Virus record (IMG/VR): IMGVR_UViG_3300045988_155985
Strand: one strand, 5' to 3'
DNA length: 48,901 nt
Source of the DNA: a virus
Taxonomy: Duplodnaviria > Heunggongvirae > Uroviricota > Caudoviricetes
The position numbers and the translations under genes were made by a program. Numbering within the stretch: position 1 is the first letter of the stretch; each line of letters starts with the position of its first letter. The notes under the pieces were generated by a model, which was given only the letters and a program-made list of their open reading frames with translations, was not told the origin of the DNA and did not search any database. Below, one piece after another: positions 1 to 48,901 of the stretch.

Positions 1-55
1 TTATACCCGAAACCGAGCGATACCCGCCCTGGTTAAACCGGAGATAACCCGATGA
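1..55 (+). promoter_or_regulatory. 3' part (conserved 5' leader and RBS) of the promoter-operator-leader cassette; identical to 48847-48901, so it continues from the window end
   Basis: Exact 55-bp identity between window start and window end; same leader precedes ATGs at 32394 and 41286. Confidence 0.5.
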
Positions 56-25799: not shown

Positions 25800-25802
25800 A
25801 TT

Positions 25803-26336
25803 ATGCAGCATTTAAAAAATATTAAGTCAGGAAATCCAAAAACAAAAGAGCAATATCAGCTAACAAAGAATTTTGATGTTATCTGGTTATGGTCCGAAGA
25901 CGGTAAAAACTGGTATGAAGAACAAAAGAACTTTCAGGAAAACACAATAAAGCTAGCTTACACAGCAGAGGGAATTATTGTTGCTATTGATAAGGATGTA
26001 TCGGCAATTAATCCAGAAGGTTTAAGCGTTGTTGAGTTGCCTGATATAACGGCCAATAGACGGGCTGATATTTCGGGTAACTGGATGTTCAAAGATGGCG
26101 CGGTGATAAAGCGAACTTATACCGAGGAGGAACAGAGGCAGCAGGCAGAGAATGAAAAGCAAAGCCTGTTGCAACTTGTCAGGGATAAAACCCAGCTATG
26201 GGACTCACAGCTACGGCTGGGTATCATTTCCGACGAGAATAAACTAAAATTAACCGAGTGGATGCTCTATGCGCAGAAAGTCGAATCTACAGACACCTCC
26301 AGCCTGCCAGTAACGTTTCCCGAACAACCAGAATGA
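25803..26336 (+). CDS. tail fibre assembly protein (expressed orientation)
   Basis: 177 aa; N-terminus [14 protein letters not shown] shared with the minus-strand paralog. Confidence 0.75.
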
Positions 26337-26364: not shown

Positions 26365-26892
26365 TTATTCAGGCTTTTGTGGCCATTCAGGATTTGCCGT
26401 ATCCACACGGCTGACCAGAACACTGTAGCGTTCCCATGATTCCAGTCGTGCGCGTTCCTCATCCGTCGCCATATTCAGCCTGACAGCGCGCTCCAGTGGC
26501 TGAATAACGCTTTCTGCTTCGGAAAGTAACGCGGCCTTTTGTGATTCGGCCTGTTGTTGCTGTTCGTCAGCCGTATAAATCCGTTTAACCACAGCTCCGT
26601 CCTTAAACATCCACTTACCGGAATCATCGGCCCGACGATTGGTTGTTATATCGGGAACCTCAACGACGCTAAAACCTTCAGGGTTAAGCGTGGATGCATC
26701 TTTGGTGATGGCGACAATAATATTATTTTCATCGTAAACAATCTTTATGGTGTCTGGCTGAAAGTTTTTCACTTCCTCATACCAGTTTTTTCCGTCCTCA
26801 GAGTAAAGCCAGATAACTCCGTGTTTCTTTGTTAACTCATACTGTTCCAGTGTTTTAGCGTTACCCGCTTTTATGTTCTTTAAGTGCATCAT
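26365..26892 (-). CDS. alternative tail fibre assembly protein (silent orientation)
   Basis: 175 aa; paralogous N-terminus [14 protein letters not shown]; convergent to 25803-26336. Confidence 0.75.
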
Positions 26893-26893
26893 A

Positions 26894-27985: not shown

Positions 27986-28540
27986 ATGCAATATGGTTAT
28001 GCGAGGGTGTCAACTTTTGACCAGAATTTGGAATTACAACTGGAGGCGCTCAGGAGTTTAGGATGTGACCGGATTTTTGAAGATAAAATATCCGGTGCTA
28101 AATCAAAACGACCAGGACTTGATAAGCTACTTAAGGTGTTACGGCCGGGCGATACGGTTATTGTCTGGAAGCTGGACCGAATGGGGCGTTCTCTGATTCA
28201 TCTTGTTGATTTACTTAACCATTTTTTATCAAACAACATTGAGTTTATTTCGATTACGGAAGGGATAAAAATTAGCACTTCAATTGGCCGCTTTGCCTAC
28301 ACGATGCTGAGTGCAGTCGCAGAGATGGAGCGGGAAAATATGATTGAAAGAACGCGTGCAGGATTGGCGGTGGCAAGGGCTAACGGCAGGATAGGAGGAC
28401 GCCGCTCAAAGCTGGCACCAGAGCAATGGGAACAGATCGGAAGGCTTATTGCGAATGGTGTTTCACGTAAGCGGATAGCGATTATCTTCGATGTTACCTT
28501 ATCCACGCTTTACCGCAGGTTTCCGGCTGGGAATCATTGA
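27986..28540 (+). CDS. serine-recombinase DNA invertase (Hin/Gin/Cin family)
   Basis: N-terminal GYARVSTFDQ with catalytic Ser, central resolvase motifs, C-terminal HTH; adjacent to the invertible segment. Confidence 0.9.
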   Translation: MQYGYARVSTFDQNLELQLEALRSLGCDRIFEDKISGAKSKRPGLDKLLKVLRPGDTVIVWKLDRMGRSLIHLVDLLNHFLSNNIEFISITEGIKISTSIGRFAYTMLSAVAEMERENMIERTRAGLAVARANGRIGGRRSKLAPEQWEQIGRLIANGVSRKRIAIIFDVTLSTLYRRFPAGNH

Positions 28541-32126: not shown

Positions 32127-32280
32127 TTGGCACCTCAAATTGTTTAAAATGTGTTAATTACAAAATTCAGCCGATACCATGTTCAATGGTATAGCATTGC
32201 TGAAATGTCTTTTTCAAGACCTTGCCAATAAGCTAAACAAAAATGTTTAATGCTTCGCCTAAAAAAACACCAGTTACTAT

Positions 32281-32393
32281 TATTTATATAATTATAGATT
32301 TATATAAAAAGTGCTTTACAGGTGGGAAAAAATTTCCTAAGGTTATACCCGAAACCGAGCGATACCCGCCCTGGTTAAACCGGAGATAACCCG
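32281..32393 (+). promoter_or_regulatory. promoter-operator-leader cassette, copy B
   Basis: AT-rich repeat 32281-32310; -35-like TTTACA 32315-32320; 17-bp spacer with inverted repeat GGAAA-AAA-TTTCC; -10-like TAAGGT 32338-32343; conserved 50-nt leader. Confidence 0.5.
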
Positions 32394-32774
32394 ATGAGCA
32401 TGATTAAAATCCGCAAAAACGCTTTCCTTAAAATTCAAACTATCCTGGCTGGTTCTGTTGGCGTGATTTGCCGTTCTTCCTCAAGCCGCATCGATGACGG
32501 CTACGATGATGAGTATCGTGTGTCCTCATGCGATGAGGCTTTAACCTGGCTGAAGGAGAATCAGGAACGTGCCCAGGTATATCTGGAAACAGAGAACGGC
32601 AATCAGATGCTGCGTATTAGCGGTCGTTATGGATTTGAAACTACATTCATGGCCTATTTTAATCAGGCTTACTTTGACAAGGAGTTGGCTTGGTACACTG
32701 ATCGCATGAGCAAAAGCGAGCCAGCCCCGATTACACCGCCGAACAATAAACCATTTTTATTCCTCGTTAAGTAA
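32394..32774 (+). CDS. hypothetical protein, 126 aa, first gene of cassette B
   Basis: ORF track; ATG within conserved leader context. Confidence 0.5.
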   Translation: MSMIKIRKNAFLKIQTILAGSVGVICRSSSSRIDDGYDDEYRVSSCDEALTWLKENQERAQVYLETENGNQMLRISGRYGFETTFMAYFNQAYFDKELAWYTDRMSKSEPAPITPPNNKPFLFLVK

Positions 32775-32782
32775 ACACAATG

Positions 32783-32809
32783 CGCAAAGTGTCATTTTGA
32801 CACTTTGCG
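32783..32809. promoter_or_regulatory. perfect 27-bp palindrome (12-bp arms), candidate operator
   Basis: CGCAAAGTGTCA-TTT-TGACACTTTGCG; half-site AAAGTGTCATTTTGA recurs at 41116-41130. Confidence 0.35.
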
Positions 32810-32837
32810 AGTGTTAATATTGTGCGAGGAGGGTGCT

Positions 32838-33110
32838 ATGACGGGTTATGAATTGAAATTATGGCGTCGTGGGATGAACTGGACGCAGGAGCGAGCCGCC
32901 GAAGAATTTGGGATATCGTTGGCTACATATAAGCGATATGAGAAGGGGGAGCCGCCGAGGGTCATTGAGATGGCCATTCGCGTTCTGTCGTTTGACGATA
33001 TGGTGAAGGATCTTTCACACCTTGATAAAGACGCGATTCTGTTAAGGCTGCAAACCCTTGTATGGGAAAAGGTTAAAGTGTCGTCAGAATTGGAACAAGG
33101 GATCAAATGA
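32838..33110 (+). CDS. HTH (Xre-like) transcriptional regulator
   Basis: HTH WTQERAAEEFGISLATYKRYE; ATG 32838 after GAGGAGGG (track start 32805 is TTG inside the palindrome). Confidence 0.55.
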   Translation: MTGYELKLWRRGMNWTQERAAEEFGISLATYKRYEKGEPPRVIEMAIRVLSFDDMVKDLSHLDKDAILLRLQTLVWEKVKVSSELEQGIK

Positions 33111-33155
33111 TCCTTTACGGATCGTTTTATGGTGGTGTAATGTAAGCGCCAGAAA

Positions 33156-33186
33156 GACAAAAACCGCCTTGCCGGGCGGTTTTCAG
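33156..33186. terminator. bidirectional rho-independent terminator
   Basis: Hairpin AACCGCC-TTGCCG-GGCGGTT flanked by A-run and T-run. Confidence 0.55.
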
Positions 33187-33919
33187 TCTGAAATTTAAAT
33201 CTTGCTTGGTAGGCTGGATTTAAAAAGACACCTCTTGATTGGGGCGGCTTTCTTGCGTCTAAAGATAATCAAATCTTTTTGCGCCTGCAACCCCTTTTTT
33301 ACTGGTGCCCATTTCAGACTCACGCTCGCGTCGTTGTCTTTGCCACTTCGTTGGGTTCGGTGTTTTTGGGCGAAGTGGCGCGCGGGTATGCGTACAAGGG
33401 GAAAGTGTGCTGACGCAAGCCAGGAACAGCGATCTAAACTAAGTCGAGTCTGAGAAAGGCAGGAGTGCGACAACTCGCCTGTGCTCTATGAGCAGAAGAA
33501 GGTATATCAGACGACCAATGGCATGATTGTGGGCCACAGGGCGCACACGGCGGCGAAGCATTGGAAACGATGTGGAGCTATCTGGTGGCATGAGTTCCGG
33601 TACTCGATCTCGAGCTTTTTTTGATGCTTTTGAGAAGGGGCCGGAACTCCGGTAAAGGGCACCCTGTATGGGGGGAGGGGGGGTTGTGTCTGAAGGGTGG
33701 TTATCGGTTATGGTGGAATTATGATGCGTAGAAAAGCGAGTTTGCTGCAAGCTATTGGGTCCATTATTTCTTTGTTTCCGGCAGTTGATCATTTTCGTCA
33801 TATGGCGACACGTTCCAGTATGGGCTTGGCGCGTGACGCTGACGCTATTCGAAAGGATTTTCAGAAAGTCTCTGGTGTTGATAAGAGAGAAAAGAGTAAG
33901 GGGCCGTAGCCCCTTGTAG

Positions 33920-36627: not shown

Positions 36628-36664
36628 CCCCTCTTATATAAATCTATAAAACTATAATTATATA

Positions 36665-37318
36665 TTACGCGGCAGTAGTCAGAGCCTCAAGCTGGTTGAT
36701 AATCCCCTGAATAACGTCGTCTGCCTTTTTGCGTGGCGCAACGTATGAGCACTCAATGAGGCTTAAGCCCTTATCCTGAGCTTTGCTCAGAGCTGGCTTG
36801 TGGGGAATGTACTTATCGACAACAAAGTATGGCGTATTAGCCAGGTACTCTTGGGCTTCAATATAGTCAGCTTCGTTTTCAGCCGCGCCGGAAAACACCA
36901 TGCAAATTTTCTTGATTGGTACACCCTTTTTAACGATGCCGTGAGCTGTGTTAACGGTGGTTTCCAGGTCATCGGTAGAGAATCTGGTTGGTAAAATAAC
37001 CATATCCAGAAATTCAGAGAGCTTCGGTACTGATTCAGATGCGTAGGCACCGCCATCGACGATAACCAGGTCGTATACTTCTGATTCGATGATTTTCTGG
37101 ACTTGTGATGGTGTGCCGCACGGCTGCGCCGCGATTGCTGGTTCGATATTGTTGGCCATTCTGCGTTGTACCCAACGCGTTACCGTTCCGTTAAGCACAT
37201 CCATATCGATCAGGCATACATTCCAGCCGGCCTTTGCATAAGCAACTGCTAAAGCACGGGCAATTGTTGATTTGGTTACGCCGCCTTTTCCGTTGAAAAT
37301 ACCTACAGAGATAGTCAT
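36665..37318 (-). CDS. parA: partition ATPase, small ParA (ParF-like, type Ib)
   Basis: Deviant Walker A GKGGVTKST; about 217 aa; ATG 37318 (track start 37333). Confidence 0.85.
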   Translation of the reverse strand: MTISVGIFNGKGGVTKSTIARALAVAYAKAGWNVCLIDMDVLNGTVTRWVQRRMANNIEPAIAAQPCGTPSQVQKIIESEVYDLVIVDGGAYASESVPKLSEFLDMVILPTRFSTDDLETTVNTAHGIVKKGVPIKKICMVFSGAAENEADYIEAQEYLANTPYFVVDKYIPHKPALSKAQDKGLSLIECSYVAPRKKADDVIQGIINQLEALTTAA

Positions 37319-37341
37319 TTGTCGAGACTCCATGTGTTTGG

Positions 37342-37446
37342 TTATATAATTCTATAAATCTATATTTATAGAACGAGGTAAGCATAACCAACTTTTTGGC
37401 GGATGAAAAGCGTTTTATATAATTATATAAAACTATAATCATATAA
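37342..37446. repeat. AT-rich TATAATTATA-type repeat cluster upstream of parA; candidate centromere/operator
   Basis: Two blocks (37342-37373, 37412-37446); a related block at 36632-36667 between parA and parG. Confidence 0.4.
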
Positions 37447-37935: not shown

Positions 37936-38592
37936 TCATAACCAGTTGACAACACTAACTACGCGGCCCAGAACTTTATAACGCTTAAATTCCTCGTTAT
38001 TCAGATGCTTAGTGTTCATTTCAGCATCCCTTTCGGTTGACAGCATAACAGCATTGTCACCCGGTATGACTCTACAGTGCCTCAAAACAACCAGGCCATT
38101 TCTGTCTTCAAGGGCATAGATCCCCTCATGAATCTCTGTATCGTCTGTATTAATCAGGACTTGGGAGCCAGGGGATATTGTTGGTGACATTAACTCATCG
38201 TTGCTCTGGAGAACTGACAGAGACGATGAGTTGATGTTCTTGCTTCGTAGAATCTCCTGTTCTATCGCCAGCACTGGCTTTTCTCCGGCGTGCGATGCTA
38301 TGTCATTTTTTATAGCTACAAGCCCAGGAATAACAGGAGCGTTAGTATTCTGGGGTGGGAACGGGTTATCTGTTAAGCACGCGATATAAGGCGCTGATGC
38401 TTTCAGGGCGTGCGCGATTTTCTTGATGGCAGGTATAGATGGTTGTCTTAATCCGGCCTCATAGTTCTGCAAGGTGCTTAAGCCTATTCCAGTGACTTGC
38501 TGGAGATCTCCGGCAGTCATGCCGGATTGTTTCCGTAGAGTCTGAATGCGCAGACCTATTTCTTTCTTGATGTTCTCGTCGTTGCTTTTCAT
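37936..38592 (-). CDS. prophage repressor, cI/LexA-like (N-terminal HTH, C-terminal S24 peptidase-like)
   Basis: HTH GMTAGDLQQVTGIGLSTLQNYE; C-terminal segment with Ser and Lys candidates; divergent from cro-like gene. Confidence 0.8.
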   Translation of the reverse strand: MKSNDENIKKEIGLRIQTLRKQSGMTAGDLQQVTGIGLSTLQNYEAGLRQPSIPAIKKIAHALKASAPYIACLTDNPFPPQNTNAPVIPGLVAIKNDIASHAGEKPVLAIEQEILRSKNINSSSLSVLQSNDELMSPTISPGSQVLINTDDTEIHEGIYALEDRNGLVVLRHCRVIPGDNAVMLSTERDAEMNTKHLNNEEFKRYKVLGRVVSVVNWL

Positions 38593-40738: not shown

Positions 40739-41116
40739 GTGAGACGCGATCTGGATAGCTTGTTTGAGCTATGGGCGCTGTGGGTGCGCAATGGCTGCAA
40801 CGCCCGTAGCGGTTTCGCGTCGATGTTAGAAATGATGATGGTTACGCGCTGCCAGTTTACCGGAGGGGGCGGCGCACCAAATGACTCACTGGAAACCAGT
40901 ATCGAGGGAGCGGTGACGGCCCTCACGGTAGTTGATGAGACTGCGGCGCTGGTTGTCCGAATTGAATACGGGGCGTGGGAGATTCGGGGCCTCGACATAA
41001 ATGCACCGCATATTGATAAAGCCCACGCCCTTTCTCTTAGTCTCAGACAGTATCGCCGGAAGCTGGCAAAAGCCAGGGCGTATGTTGTCGACTATTTGAA
41101 AAAGCGAAGAGAGTAA
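40739..41116 (+). CDS. putative late-gene antiterminator, Q-like
   Basis: 125 aa; pattern LWALWVRNG...GFASM...LRQYRRKLAKARAYV resembles Q-family; sits before a promoter cassette. Confidence 0.4.
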   Translation: MRRDLDSLFELWALWVRNGCNARSGFASMLEMMMVTRCQFTGGGGAPNDSLETSIEGAVTALTVVDETAALVVRIEYGAWEIRGLDINAPHIDKAHALSLSLRQYRRKLAKARAYVVDYLKKRRE

Positions 41117-41166
41117 AAGTGTCATTTTGAGCTGTTTTGATGGTGTGTAGACATCGGTAACATCGA

Positions 41167-41285
41167 AAATCTATAAATATATAATTATAGATTTATATAA
41201 AAAGTGCTTTACAGGTGGGAAAAAATTTCCTAAGGTTATACCCGAAACCGAGCGATACCCGCCCTGGTTAAACCGGAGAAATCTG
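41167..41285 (+). promoter_or_regulatory. promoter-operator-leader cassette, copy C
   Basis: AT-rich repeat 41167-41203; TTTACA 41208-41213; spacer with GGAAA-AAA-TTTCC; TAAGGT 41231-41236; conserved leader. Confidence 0.5.
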
Positions 41286-42353
41286 ATGAATAAACAAGAA
41301 ATTATTTCTGACTGGATCAACAACCCTAACAGCCTGTTAAGCACTGATACTGGCTACCTATTACGCCATGTTAATGGTCGTATGGTCAAAAGCGATGAGC
41401 ACGAAACCTTTTTCTTTGTTGAAGACGATGGGCGCATCTATGAGGATGGTTACTCTTATGAAGCCCAAACTGGTTGTATCCCTGCGGAGCTGGTGGACGT
41501 AACAGAAGATCTGCGCAAAGCATGGCTTGAACAGCAGCAGCGCGGAGATGATTACGTAAACACCTATCAGGAACGCCAGAACGCGCGTCTTGCCCGATAT
41601 ATTGCTCGTGCAGAAAAAGCCAGAAAAGAAGGTGCGGTAGCGCATAAGCGAGCGCATGACCTGTTGGATGTGATCCCGTTAGGCCAGCCGATTTTAGTTG
41701 ACCATTATAGCGCGAAAGGCCATCGCCGCCGTTTGTCTAAAGCTGATGCGTTATTAAGAAAAGCGTTTGTTGAATGCGAAAGTAAAGCATCACACTACGA
41801 GAGCAAAGCCGCAGGTGTTGGTCGTAATGGAATTTCGTCTGATGATCCTGATGCGCTATTTAAGTTGCTTCGTAAGCTGCAAGGCTGCATGAAGTCACAC
41901 GTCAAAATGAAGGCCGCAAATAAGGCCATTCGCAAATACAAAAAAGACCAATTACAGCAGCTTTCTGCATTAATCGATCTCAGGTTTACAGAAAGCGAAG
42001 CCAAAGAGTTACTGGCCGGAGATTTCTGTGGGCGCATCGGATTCCCTTCATACGCACTGAGCAACAATAACGCCGAAATCAAACGACTACAGAGCCGTAT
42101 TAAGGAGCTTGAATCGGTCAAGTCTGTAACAGGAGCACAGCGCGAAGAATACGACGGCTTTTCTATGGAGATAGATCCAGAGGATAACCGCATCCTGTTT
42201 TATTTCCCTGGCAAACCAGAGGCAAACATTCGTTCGCTGCTTAAATCACGCGCCTTTAAGTGGAGTCCAACCCGTAATGCATGGGTTCGCAAGATTACTC
42301 CAAACGCCCTGGCTGATGCCCGATATCTAAAAGAATCGCTATTGAAAGCCTGA
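41286..42353 (+). CDS. hypothetical protein, 355 aa, first gene of cassette C
   Basis: ORF track; basic helical C-terminal half; no catalytic motif recognised. Confidence 0.5.
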   Translation: MNKQEIISDWINNPNSLLSTDTGYLLRHVNGRMVKSDEHETFFFVEDDGRIYEDGYSYEAQTGCIPAELVDVTEDLRKAWLEQQQRGDDYVNTYQERQNARLARYIARAEKARKEGAVAHKRAHDLLDVIPLGQPILVDHYSAKGHRRRLSKADALLRKAFVECESKASHYESKAAGVGRNGISSDDPDALFKLLRKLQGCMKSHVKMKAANKAIRKYKKDQLQQLSALIDLRFTESEAKELLAGDFCGRIGFPSYALSNNNAEIKRLQSRIKELESVKSVTGAQREEYDGFSMEIDPEDNRILFYFPGKPEANIRSLLKSRAFKWSPTRNAWVRKITPNALADARYLKESLLKA

Positions 42354-48785: not shown

Positions 48786-48901
48786 AATTATATAATTATA
48801 GATTTATATAAAAAATGCTTTACAGGTGGGAAAAAATTTCCTAAGGTTATACCCGAAACCGAGCGATACCCGCCCTGGTTAAACCGGAGATAACCCGATG
48901 A
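48786..48901 (+). promoter_or_regulatory. promoter-operator-leader cassette, copy D (same physical copy as window start on the circle)
   Basis: AT-rich repeat 48786-48815; TTTACA 48819-48824; spacer with GGAAA-AAA-TTTCC; TAAGGT 48842-48847; leader continues as 1-55. Confidence 0.5.

Follow-up and report, generated by a model that had tools for sequence, protein, structure and literature searches.

A conserved palindrome beside an Xre-type HTH gene of an Escherichia coli phage-plasmid is probably an autoregulatory operator, and its apparent second half-site a gene remnant

Introduction

In an enterobacterial phage-plasmid a palindrome lies between two small genes, one encoding a 126-aa protein and the other an Xre-type helix-turn-helix (HTH) protein, and part of it recurs exactly in front of a separate cassette. 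Is the palindrome the operator of the HTH protein encoded beside it, and does that protein, as an earlier note on this DNA proposed, regulate more than its own operon? Here we consider both questions by comparing the window (the whole stretch of DNA that was analysed, 48,901 nucleotides) with its relatives and with more distant plasmids that encode homologues of the HTH protein.

Results

The phage-plasmid and its cassettes

The window is a complete circular replicon of ~48.8 kb, with bases 1-55 repeated at 48847-48901. Near-identical plasmids of ~47-49 kb are present in 74 of 5,426 complete E. coli genomes, including that of the reference strain ATCC 25922, which carries a 48,488-bp relative, and three Yersinia pestis phages, vB_YpM_39, vB_YpM_41, and vB_YpM_44, likewise match the window, which is thus recognised as a phage-plasmid; a literature search on the three phages found no paper. 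The group name 'pSLy3' was considered and rejected, as it denotes the SSU5 supergroup. More remote relatives, with about 71% nucleotide identity, are found in Salmonella, Klebsiella aerogenes, Citrobacter, and unassigned contigs. The replicon encodes an IncFII-type RepA, ParA, and a HigB/RelE-type toxin-antitoxin pair, together with myovirus head, tail, and lysis genes. A CI-like Xre/S24 protein, separate from the 90-aa HTH protein discussed here, is the true immunity repressor of the phage-plasmid. There is also an invertible tail-fibre segment, bounded by 348-nt inverted repeats (25802-26149 and 26546-26893) and containing alternative tail-fibre C-termini and assembly genes, which is accompanied by a resolvase-type invertase gene (27986-28540) as in Mu, P1, and P2-like phages.

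Three copies of a 114-nt block, 92-100% identical to each other, head the cassettes A, B, and C (Table 1). In all three, TTTACA and TAAGGT hexamers are separated by 17 nt, and the spacer contains an inverted repeat, GGAAA-aaa-TTTCC, centred near -22; in copy B the hexamers, as read from the sequence, are at 32315-32320 and 32338-32343, the inverted repeat is at 32325-32337, and the block also holds the leader, a GGAG Shine-Dalgarno sequence, and the start codon of the 126-aa gene. The element is kept in Salmonella as AGGAAAataTTTCCT. These features suggest a promoter, leader, and ribosome binding site, and the layout is reminiscent of activator-dependent late promoters such as those of P1. The hairpin of the likely terminator that closes operon B is identical in Salmonella. 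AT-rich motifs composed of 8-bp-phased TATAA units flank parA (36634-36664, 37342-37372, and 37412-37445), with a perfect palindrome, GTTTTATATAATTATATAAAAC, among them at 37412-37436, and they recur inside each 114-nt repeat and the cassette promoters (for example at 41161-41200); these motifs may be a partition-protein centromere or operator common to the cassette promoters.

Table 1. Positions in the window of the genes and sequence elements discussed in the text.
Feature	Position	Strand	Basis or remark
114-nt repeat, copy A	48788-48901, continuing into 1-55		heads operon A (morphogenesis)
114-nt repeat, copy B	32284-32397	+	heads operon B (126-aa and HTH genes)
126-aa protein gene (phrog_8090)	32394-32774	+	PHROG of unknown function
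Inverted repeat CGCAAAGTGTCA-TTT-TGACACTTTGCG (12+3+12)	32783-32809		sequence
Conserved 21-bp core AAAGTGTCA-N3-TGACACTTT	32786-32806		proposed HTH-dimer operator
TGtTAATAT	32812-32820	+	candidate extended -10 of an internal HTH promoter
Shine-Dalgarno sequence GAGGAGGG of the HTH gene	32826-32833	+	sequence
90-aa Xre-family HTH gene (phrog_6962)	32838-33110	+	Pfam HTH_3, RefSeq
Likely bidirectional terminator	33158-33185		GC-rich hairpin with flanking A/T runs; closes operon B
parA gene	36665-37333		
CI-like Xre/S24 protein gene	37936-38592	-	Pfam
125-aa ORF (phrog_5285)	40739-41116	+	last gene of the rightward early operon; PHROG of unknown function
AAAGTGTCATTTTGAGCTGTTT, containing the second 15-mer copy (41116-41130)	41116-41137	+	read as a remnant of a deleted 146/147-aa gene
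114-nt repeat, copy C	41177-41290	+	precedes the DUF3560 gene (41286-42353); operon C runs from DUF3560 through lysis

Anatomy and conservation of the palindrome

Inspection of cassette B bears out the order of the 126-aa gene, the palindrome, and the HTH gene that the earlier note had given. The palindrome begins 9 nt past the stop codon of the 126-aa ORF and ends 28 nt ahead of the HTH start codon, which we place at ATG 32838, as in the RefSeq relatives, and not at TTG 32805 of the longest ORF. It had been described as perfect; this is correct for the two 12-bp arms and does not extend to the 3-nt centre, because TTT is not self-complementary. The description of the downstream product as an Xre-like HTH protein is sound, as it scores above the Pfam gathering cutoff for HTH_3 (PF01381; 29.8 bits against 23), and it also matches HTH_31 (27.6 against 27). 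The protein has an N-terminal HTH, the recognition-helix region of which is ISLATYKRYEKG; its C-terminal helix contains a conserved RLQTL motif, and its homologues begin with MTG(F/Y)EL.

We compared 12 distinct palindrome sequences representing six lineages, namely the E. coli-clade variants, K. aerogenes, two Salmonella types, and the lineages designated L028 and L041. Where identity was measured, the HTH proteins of the E. coli, Salmonella, K. aerogenes, L028, and L041 lineages share about 71% of residues. Across the six lineages there is divergence of the intergenic flanks; the 21-bp core and the motif TGnTAAnnT have been kept. Seven of the nine inner pairs of the core never vary and the remaining two differ only by single transitions, and this near-invariance in sequence is as protein recognition would predict. 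Within the window the full operator sequence, AAAGTGTCANNNTGACACTTT, occurs once when up to three mismatches are allowed (0.02 occurrences are expected), and a search for host targets among the 5,426 E. coli genomes revealed no instance of the palindrome outside this plasmid.

The TGnTAAnnT motif is invariant in all 12 aligned sequences, being TGtTAATAT in E. coli and TGaTAAAAT or TGtTAAAAT elsewhere; it starts 6 nt past the core, with the TAAnnT hexamer 8 nt past it. The motif has the form of an extended -10 promoter element and is a candidate for an internal promoter of the HTH gene. If transcription starts near 32827, the core would span about -41 to -21; we note that this predicted start would leave a leader of about 10 nt in E. 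coli, which counts against the reading of palindrome and -10 motif as operator and promoter. A TTGACA sequence in the right arm was considered as a -35 element and rejected, its spacing to the -10 motif being 12 nt in every lineage and TTGACA itself being lost in variants with a flipped centre.

The palindrome accompanies the HTH gene

Serratia replicons and a Providencia chromosome, the latter at a locus flanked by pyrD and pepN, encode homologues with 55-66% identity to the HTH protein, without the 126-aa gene. The Providencia chromosomal homologue is preceded by the palindrome AAAAGTGACA-tat-TGGCACTTTT, and ATGACA-aat-TGGCAT and GTGACA-aaa-TGGCAT (the latter in Serratia) are further palindromes of the Providencia and Serratia homologues; all of the palindromes in these two genera are within 30 nt of the HTH start codons. 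Remoter homologues (35-53% identical) have other recognition helices and other palindromes, for example AAAGTGAAG-ttt-TTTCACTTT, present in two copies, in IncI plasmids, TGCAGATTCTGCA in IncFII plasmids, and AAATGTTCAAATATGAACATTT in both L017 and pOXA-48 (IncL). The pOXA-48 homologue is encoded by the downstream gene of a two-gene operon, with the palindrome at the operon promoter followed by TATAAA, which is the same operator-then--10 layout as in cassette B; the 153-aa protein encoded by the upstream gene has no similarity to the 126-aa protein by BLASTP, and the next gene after the HTH gene bears the annotation of a restriction endonuclease. Homologues with E values of 1e-3 or better are encoded by 3,782 of 72,556 PLSDB plasmids, which are mostly conjugative (IncL pOXA-48, IncI, IncFII), and each of these plasmid homologues has its own AAA(G/T)G...-type palindrome upstream (for example, at 1953-1976 in L014 and about 2396-2490 in L015).

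Judging from these comparisons the palindrome travels with the HTH gene and not with the 126-aa gene, and we regard this as the decisive point: a dyad site is conserved beside its own HTH gene across lineages and contexts. A conserved core, variation that matches the lineage, and a fixed distance to the -10 motif form the pattern of an autoregulatory operator. The earlier suggestion that the palindrome is the cognate site of the HTH protein is very probably right, given that the core and its position are conserved and that homologues have matching palindromes. We propose that the HTH protein, presumably as a dimer, binds the 21-bp core, which would overlap the -35/spacer region of the internal promoter, so repressing its own synthesis and probably also blocking read-through from the upstream cassette promoter. 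The palindrome, the internal extended -10 promoter, and the 90-aa HTH gene would together constitute an autonomous regulatory unit within cassette B. One observation against this proposal is that a variant common in E. coli has a 570-bp insertion splitting the palindrome and the -10 motif from the HTH gene; adjacency of palindrome and gene is therefore not essential.

Insertions at the cassette B locus

The 570-bp insertion is present in many E. coli plasmids (positions 1215-1790 in L011, and also in L031, L037, and L039) at the point corresponding to 32820/32821 of the window, immediately after TAATAT; it contains a reverse-oriented 141-aa ORF with no Pfam or PADLOC match. In the Yersinia phage vB_YpM_41 (L012) a MITE-like element of ~320 bp (1365-1687), with terminal inverted repeats of ~27 bp (GGGGTTCCGTGGGAATTTCTGCGATAA...) and a short target duplication, is located at the equivalent of 32837/32838, where it parts the ATG of the HTH gene from its Shine-Dalgarno sequence. 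One or both of the 126-aa and HTH genes are truncated by IS elements or other inserted DNA at about 10270-10393 in L025 and L026, at about 250-650 in L027, and at 6250-7600 in L028. The repeated damage by IS elements and other insertions at this locus indicates that the cassette is dispensable for plasmid maintenance.

A possible hairpin role for the palindrome

An alternative is that the palindrome functions mainly as a nucleic-acid hairpin and not as an operator, either as a stem-loop in the RNA, located 3' in the message for the 126-aa protein (a stabiliser, an attenuator, or a processing site that uncouples the two genes) or as a DNA cruciform. The predicted stem is stable, with a local fold of -23 to -29 kcal/mol (z of -3.3 to -4.5), in four of five lineages, although shuffled sequence folds just as well as the Salmonella version in L009. 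Covariation is seen in the outer three pairs, with six double-sided cells (1 of 500 shuffles reach this number) and a covariation score of 0.209 versus 0.134, which would not be predicted by a protein site alone; these pairs differ by lineage and are still complementary (CGC/GCG, ATGCTC/GAGCAT, GTGG/CCAC, CATGCGG/TCGCATG), and the E. coli clade itself contains a compensatory change from CGC/GCG to CAC/GTG. In some plasmids (L031, L039) the centre is flipped from TTT to AAA. However, quasi-palindromes tend to be corrected by intrastrand template switching, and such hairpin-templated correction could equally yield the covariation without function. Either this process or a secondary role of the hairpin best explains the perfect outer pairs specific to each lineage.

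The 570-bp insertion leaves the palindrome beside the 126-aa gene and away from the HTH gene, and on the minus strand the palindrome is followed by a T-rich tail such that it could terminate the reverse gene of the insertion. On the plus strand, by contrast, the hairpin is followed by AGTGTTAATATTG, which has no U-tract, so the palindrome is not an intrinsic (Rho-independent) terminator for the 126-aa gene; a terminator scan flags the minus strand only. Moreover, the nine inner pairs are conserved in sequence and not just in pairing, HTH homologues without the upstream gene have equivalent palindromes, and an A.G asymmetry in the Serratia and Providencia palindromes would break an RNA helix. 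An Rfam scan of 32150-33300 identified no family and a single sub-threshold chance match. Among the one-sided arm changes, scored on the plus strand, there are five G.U and two A.C, which in this small sample is not different from chance; five versus two being too few, we dropped the strand bias as a means of discriminating RNA from DNA. We regard it as unlikely that the palindrome is mainly a hairpin, but a hairpin could be a rival or an additional function.

The second site at 41116-41130

The earlier note had also taken the recurrence of one half-site to hint that the HTH protein regulates more than its own operon, in which case it might control cassette C or form a roadblock where the early operon ends. 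The recurrence itself is real: the 15-mer AAAGTGTCATTTTGA is present twice in the window, at 32786 and 41116, and about 1.8e-4 extra copies of a pre-specified 15-mer are expected from composition. The second copy starts at the last base of the TAA stop codon of the 125-aa ORF, 61 nt ahead of copy C of the 114-nt repeat and about 120 nt upstream of the cassette C start, at the point where the early operon gives way to cassette C. In every E. coli-clade copy examined the 15-mer is unchanged, as are nine further bases, an observation weakly compatible with selection on this site; the block AAAGTGTCATTTTGAGCTGTTTTG shows no variation in seven E. coli-clade sequences and the next ~30 nt contain about 10 variable positions, but this variation amounts to essentially two haplotypes, and the invariance is therefore weak evidence. 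Furthermore, about ten other exact repeats of 15-16 nt join unrelated places in the window (including 6900/10879, 1151/20519, 11992/30501, and 7275/11009), so that a lone 15-nt recurrence spotted by eye is not by itself beyond chance.

Other observations also argue against a regulatory role. The right half of the second site matches the operator at only five of nine positions, and it therefore does not constitute a dimer site; it is centred some 85 nt ahead of the candidate cassette C -35 element, outside the 114-nt repeat, and nothing comparable is found upstream of copies A and B. An AAAGTG sequence within the shared repeat was considered as a cryptic half-site and rejected, as it is a 6-mer only and copy A does not preserve it. 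No operator-like site is found at this location in Salmonella, K. aerogenes, and L027; the bases homologous to it belong to codons of a 146/147-aa gene, do not contain the GTGTCA core, and do not track the operator centres (AAT, ATT) of their own lineages. These 146/147-aa genes of the Salmonella and Klebsiella relatives overlap the stop codon of the 125-aa ORF (37720-38163 in L013, 7473-7913 in L023, 8527-8970 in L027), and their products have no Pfam or NCBIfam match. The E. coli clade lacks the gene, and the C-terminus of its 125-aa ORF is changed, with YLKKRRE versus YLKESRT.

Alignment of AAAGTGTCATTTTGAGCTGTTT with the interior of the 146/147-aa gene gives 19-20 identities in 22 positions in three sister lineages, a score reached by none of 2000 shuffles; the matching segment in K. 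aerogenes is AAAGGTCATTTTGAGCTATTT, and that in Salmonella is AAAGGCTCATTTTGAGCTATTT. A single indel thus separates the E. coli 15-mer from the K. aerogenes coding sequence of the lost gene. For the rest of the E. coli spacer (41131-41176), alignment as a gene remnant is not significant. We suggest that the copy at 41116 is a non-regulatory remnant of the lost gene that would resemble one operator half by chance. The proposal that the regulon reaches cassette C is thus not supported, the site being a half-site only, absent from the sister lineages, and aligned with a lost gene; we consider a regulon extending beyond the HTH operon distinctly unlikely and even weak binding of the HTH protein to this half-site very doubtful, and the link to cassette C is best dropped.

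The ORF ahead of the second site had been labelled Q-like, a label for which we find no support: it matches no Pfam family above threshold and no antiterminator family, lambda-type Q included, and its NCBIfam match, PA0613_fam, is at 21.3 bits against a cutoff of 100. PA0613 is a gene of the Pseudomonas pyocin cluster, in which it is located just upstream of the lysis genes.

The 126-aa protein and a toxin-antitoxin reading

The 126-aa protein is confined to this phage-plasmid lineage, with 17 clusters in a search of 5.8 billion proteins, and has no Pfam, NCBIfam, or PADLOC match. Its AF2 model, which is confident (pLDDT 82.8), has an alpha/beta fold, and structure searches yielded no informative match and no recognisable fold. 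That the two genes are a type II pair in reverse order, encoding a 126-aa toxin and an HTH antitoxin and having the palindrome as the operator of their operon, is very unlikely: gene order and sizes resemble those of higBA and mqsRA, the HTH protein is weakly similar to MqsA and HipB, and a true HigB/HigA-type pair is located immediately upstream, but the 126-aa protein matches no toxin family, PADLOC model, or toxin fold, L028 retains an intact 125-aa gene while an IS cuts its HTH gene to 43 aa, the MITE-like and 570-bp insertions part the two genes in viable phages and plasmids, HTH homologues stand alone on other replicons, and the operator lies between the two genes and not ahead of the first. 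The two genes do not, on this evidence, make up a type II toxin-antitoxin module.

Discussion

We favor the explanation, which we hold to be reasonably probable as a whole, that cassette B contains an autoregulatory HTH unit and that the 15-mer at 41116 is an incidental gene remnant. A more elaborate alternative is that the palindrome is dual-purpose, its core serving the HTH dimer and its outer stem an RNA or DNA hairpin that would insulate the late-type cassette promoter from a constitutively autoregulated HTH gene, with the decayed fragment recruited in the E. coli clade as a weak auxiliary half-site at the early/late operon boundary and the HTH proteins forming a widespread class of plasmid regulators. 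We think this quite improbable; if true, it would make the HTH family a widespread regulator class worth study.

With the autoregulatory unit as the preferred reading, a two-gene cassette of a common E. coli phage-plasmid that is otherwise annotated as hypothetical gains a probable operator, a probable promoter, and a probable autoregulatory role, and a tempting regulatory link to the lysis/DUF3560 cassette is removed. The latter illustrates that a short exact repeat can stem from gene decay instead of regulation. Thousands of enterobacterial plasmids, pOXA-48 and IncI backbones among them, encode HTH homologues, each with its own palindrome, and we found no characterised member of the family in the literature searched, the searches not having been aimed directly at it.

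The HTH unit is best read as a small autoregulator of the Xre type whose dyad operator overlies the promoter of its own gene, and it is apparently uncharacterised as far as we have searched. Among described systems the restriction-modification (R-M) controller proteins and Cro-like repressors appear to be the closest in architecture. Phage 434 Cro, the P22 C2-type proteins, and plasmid Xre regulators are small autoregulatory repressors of the Xre/Cro HTH type; like the Cro and C2-type repressors, the protein described here has a single HTH_3 domain and is predicted to act as a dimer on a dyad operator of roughly 20 bp over its own promoter, but there is one operator instead of a tripartite OR, and no divergent partner promoter. 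The R-M controller proteins (C.PvuII, C.AhdI, and C.Esp1396I) are autoregulated HTH_3 proteins of 80-100 aa with family-specific boxes, and they share with the HTH unit a gene positioned just downstream of a palindromic box in the -35 region of its own promoter; however, the HTH unit has a single palindrome and not paired C-boxes, and no R-M genes lie alongside it in the window, and judged on its boxes and its neighbouring genes it is not a member of this class. The antitoxins MqsA, HigA, and HipB are likewise palindrome-binding products of the second genes of two-gene operons with weak similarity in the HTH, but the scores are below the family cutoffs (for MqsA, 3fmy at E=0.06, TIGR03830 at 25.4 bits against 61.8, and PF15731 at 16.5 against 30), the partner is not a recognisable toxin, and the HTH gene is dispensable, as in L028; the 90-aa protein moreover begins directly with the HTH, without the N-terminal CxxC zinc-ribbon domain, and does not belong to MqsA. 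Finally, the best NCBIfam match across the HTH is to RstR of CTX-phi (NF041951), which is also a phage-borne repressor; at 34.1 bits the match is far below the 80-bit cutoff, and the HTH protein is therefore not a member of the RstR family.
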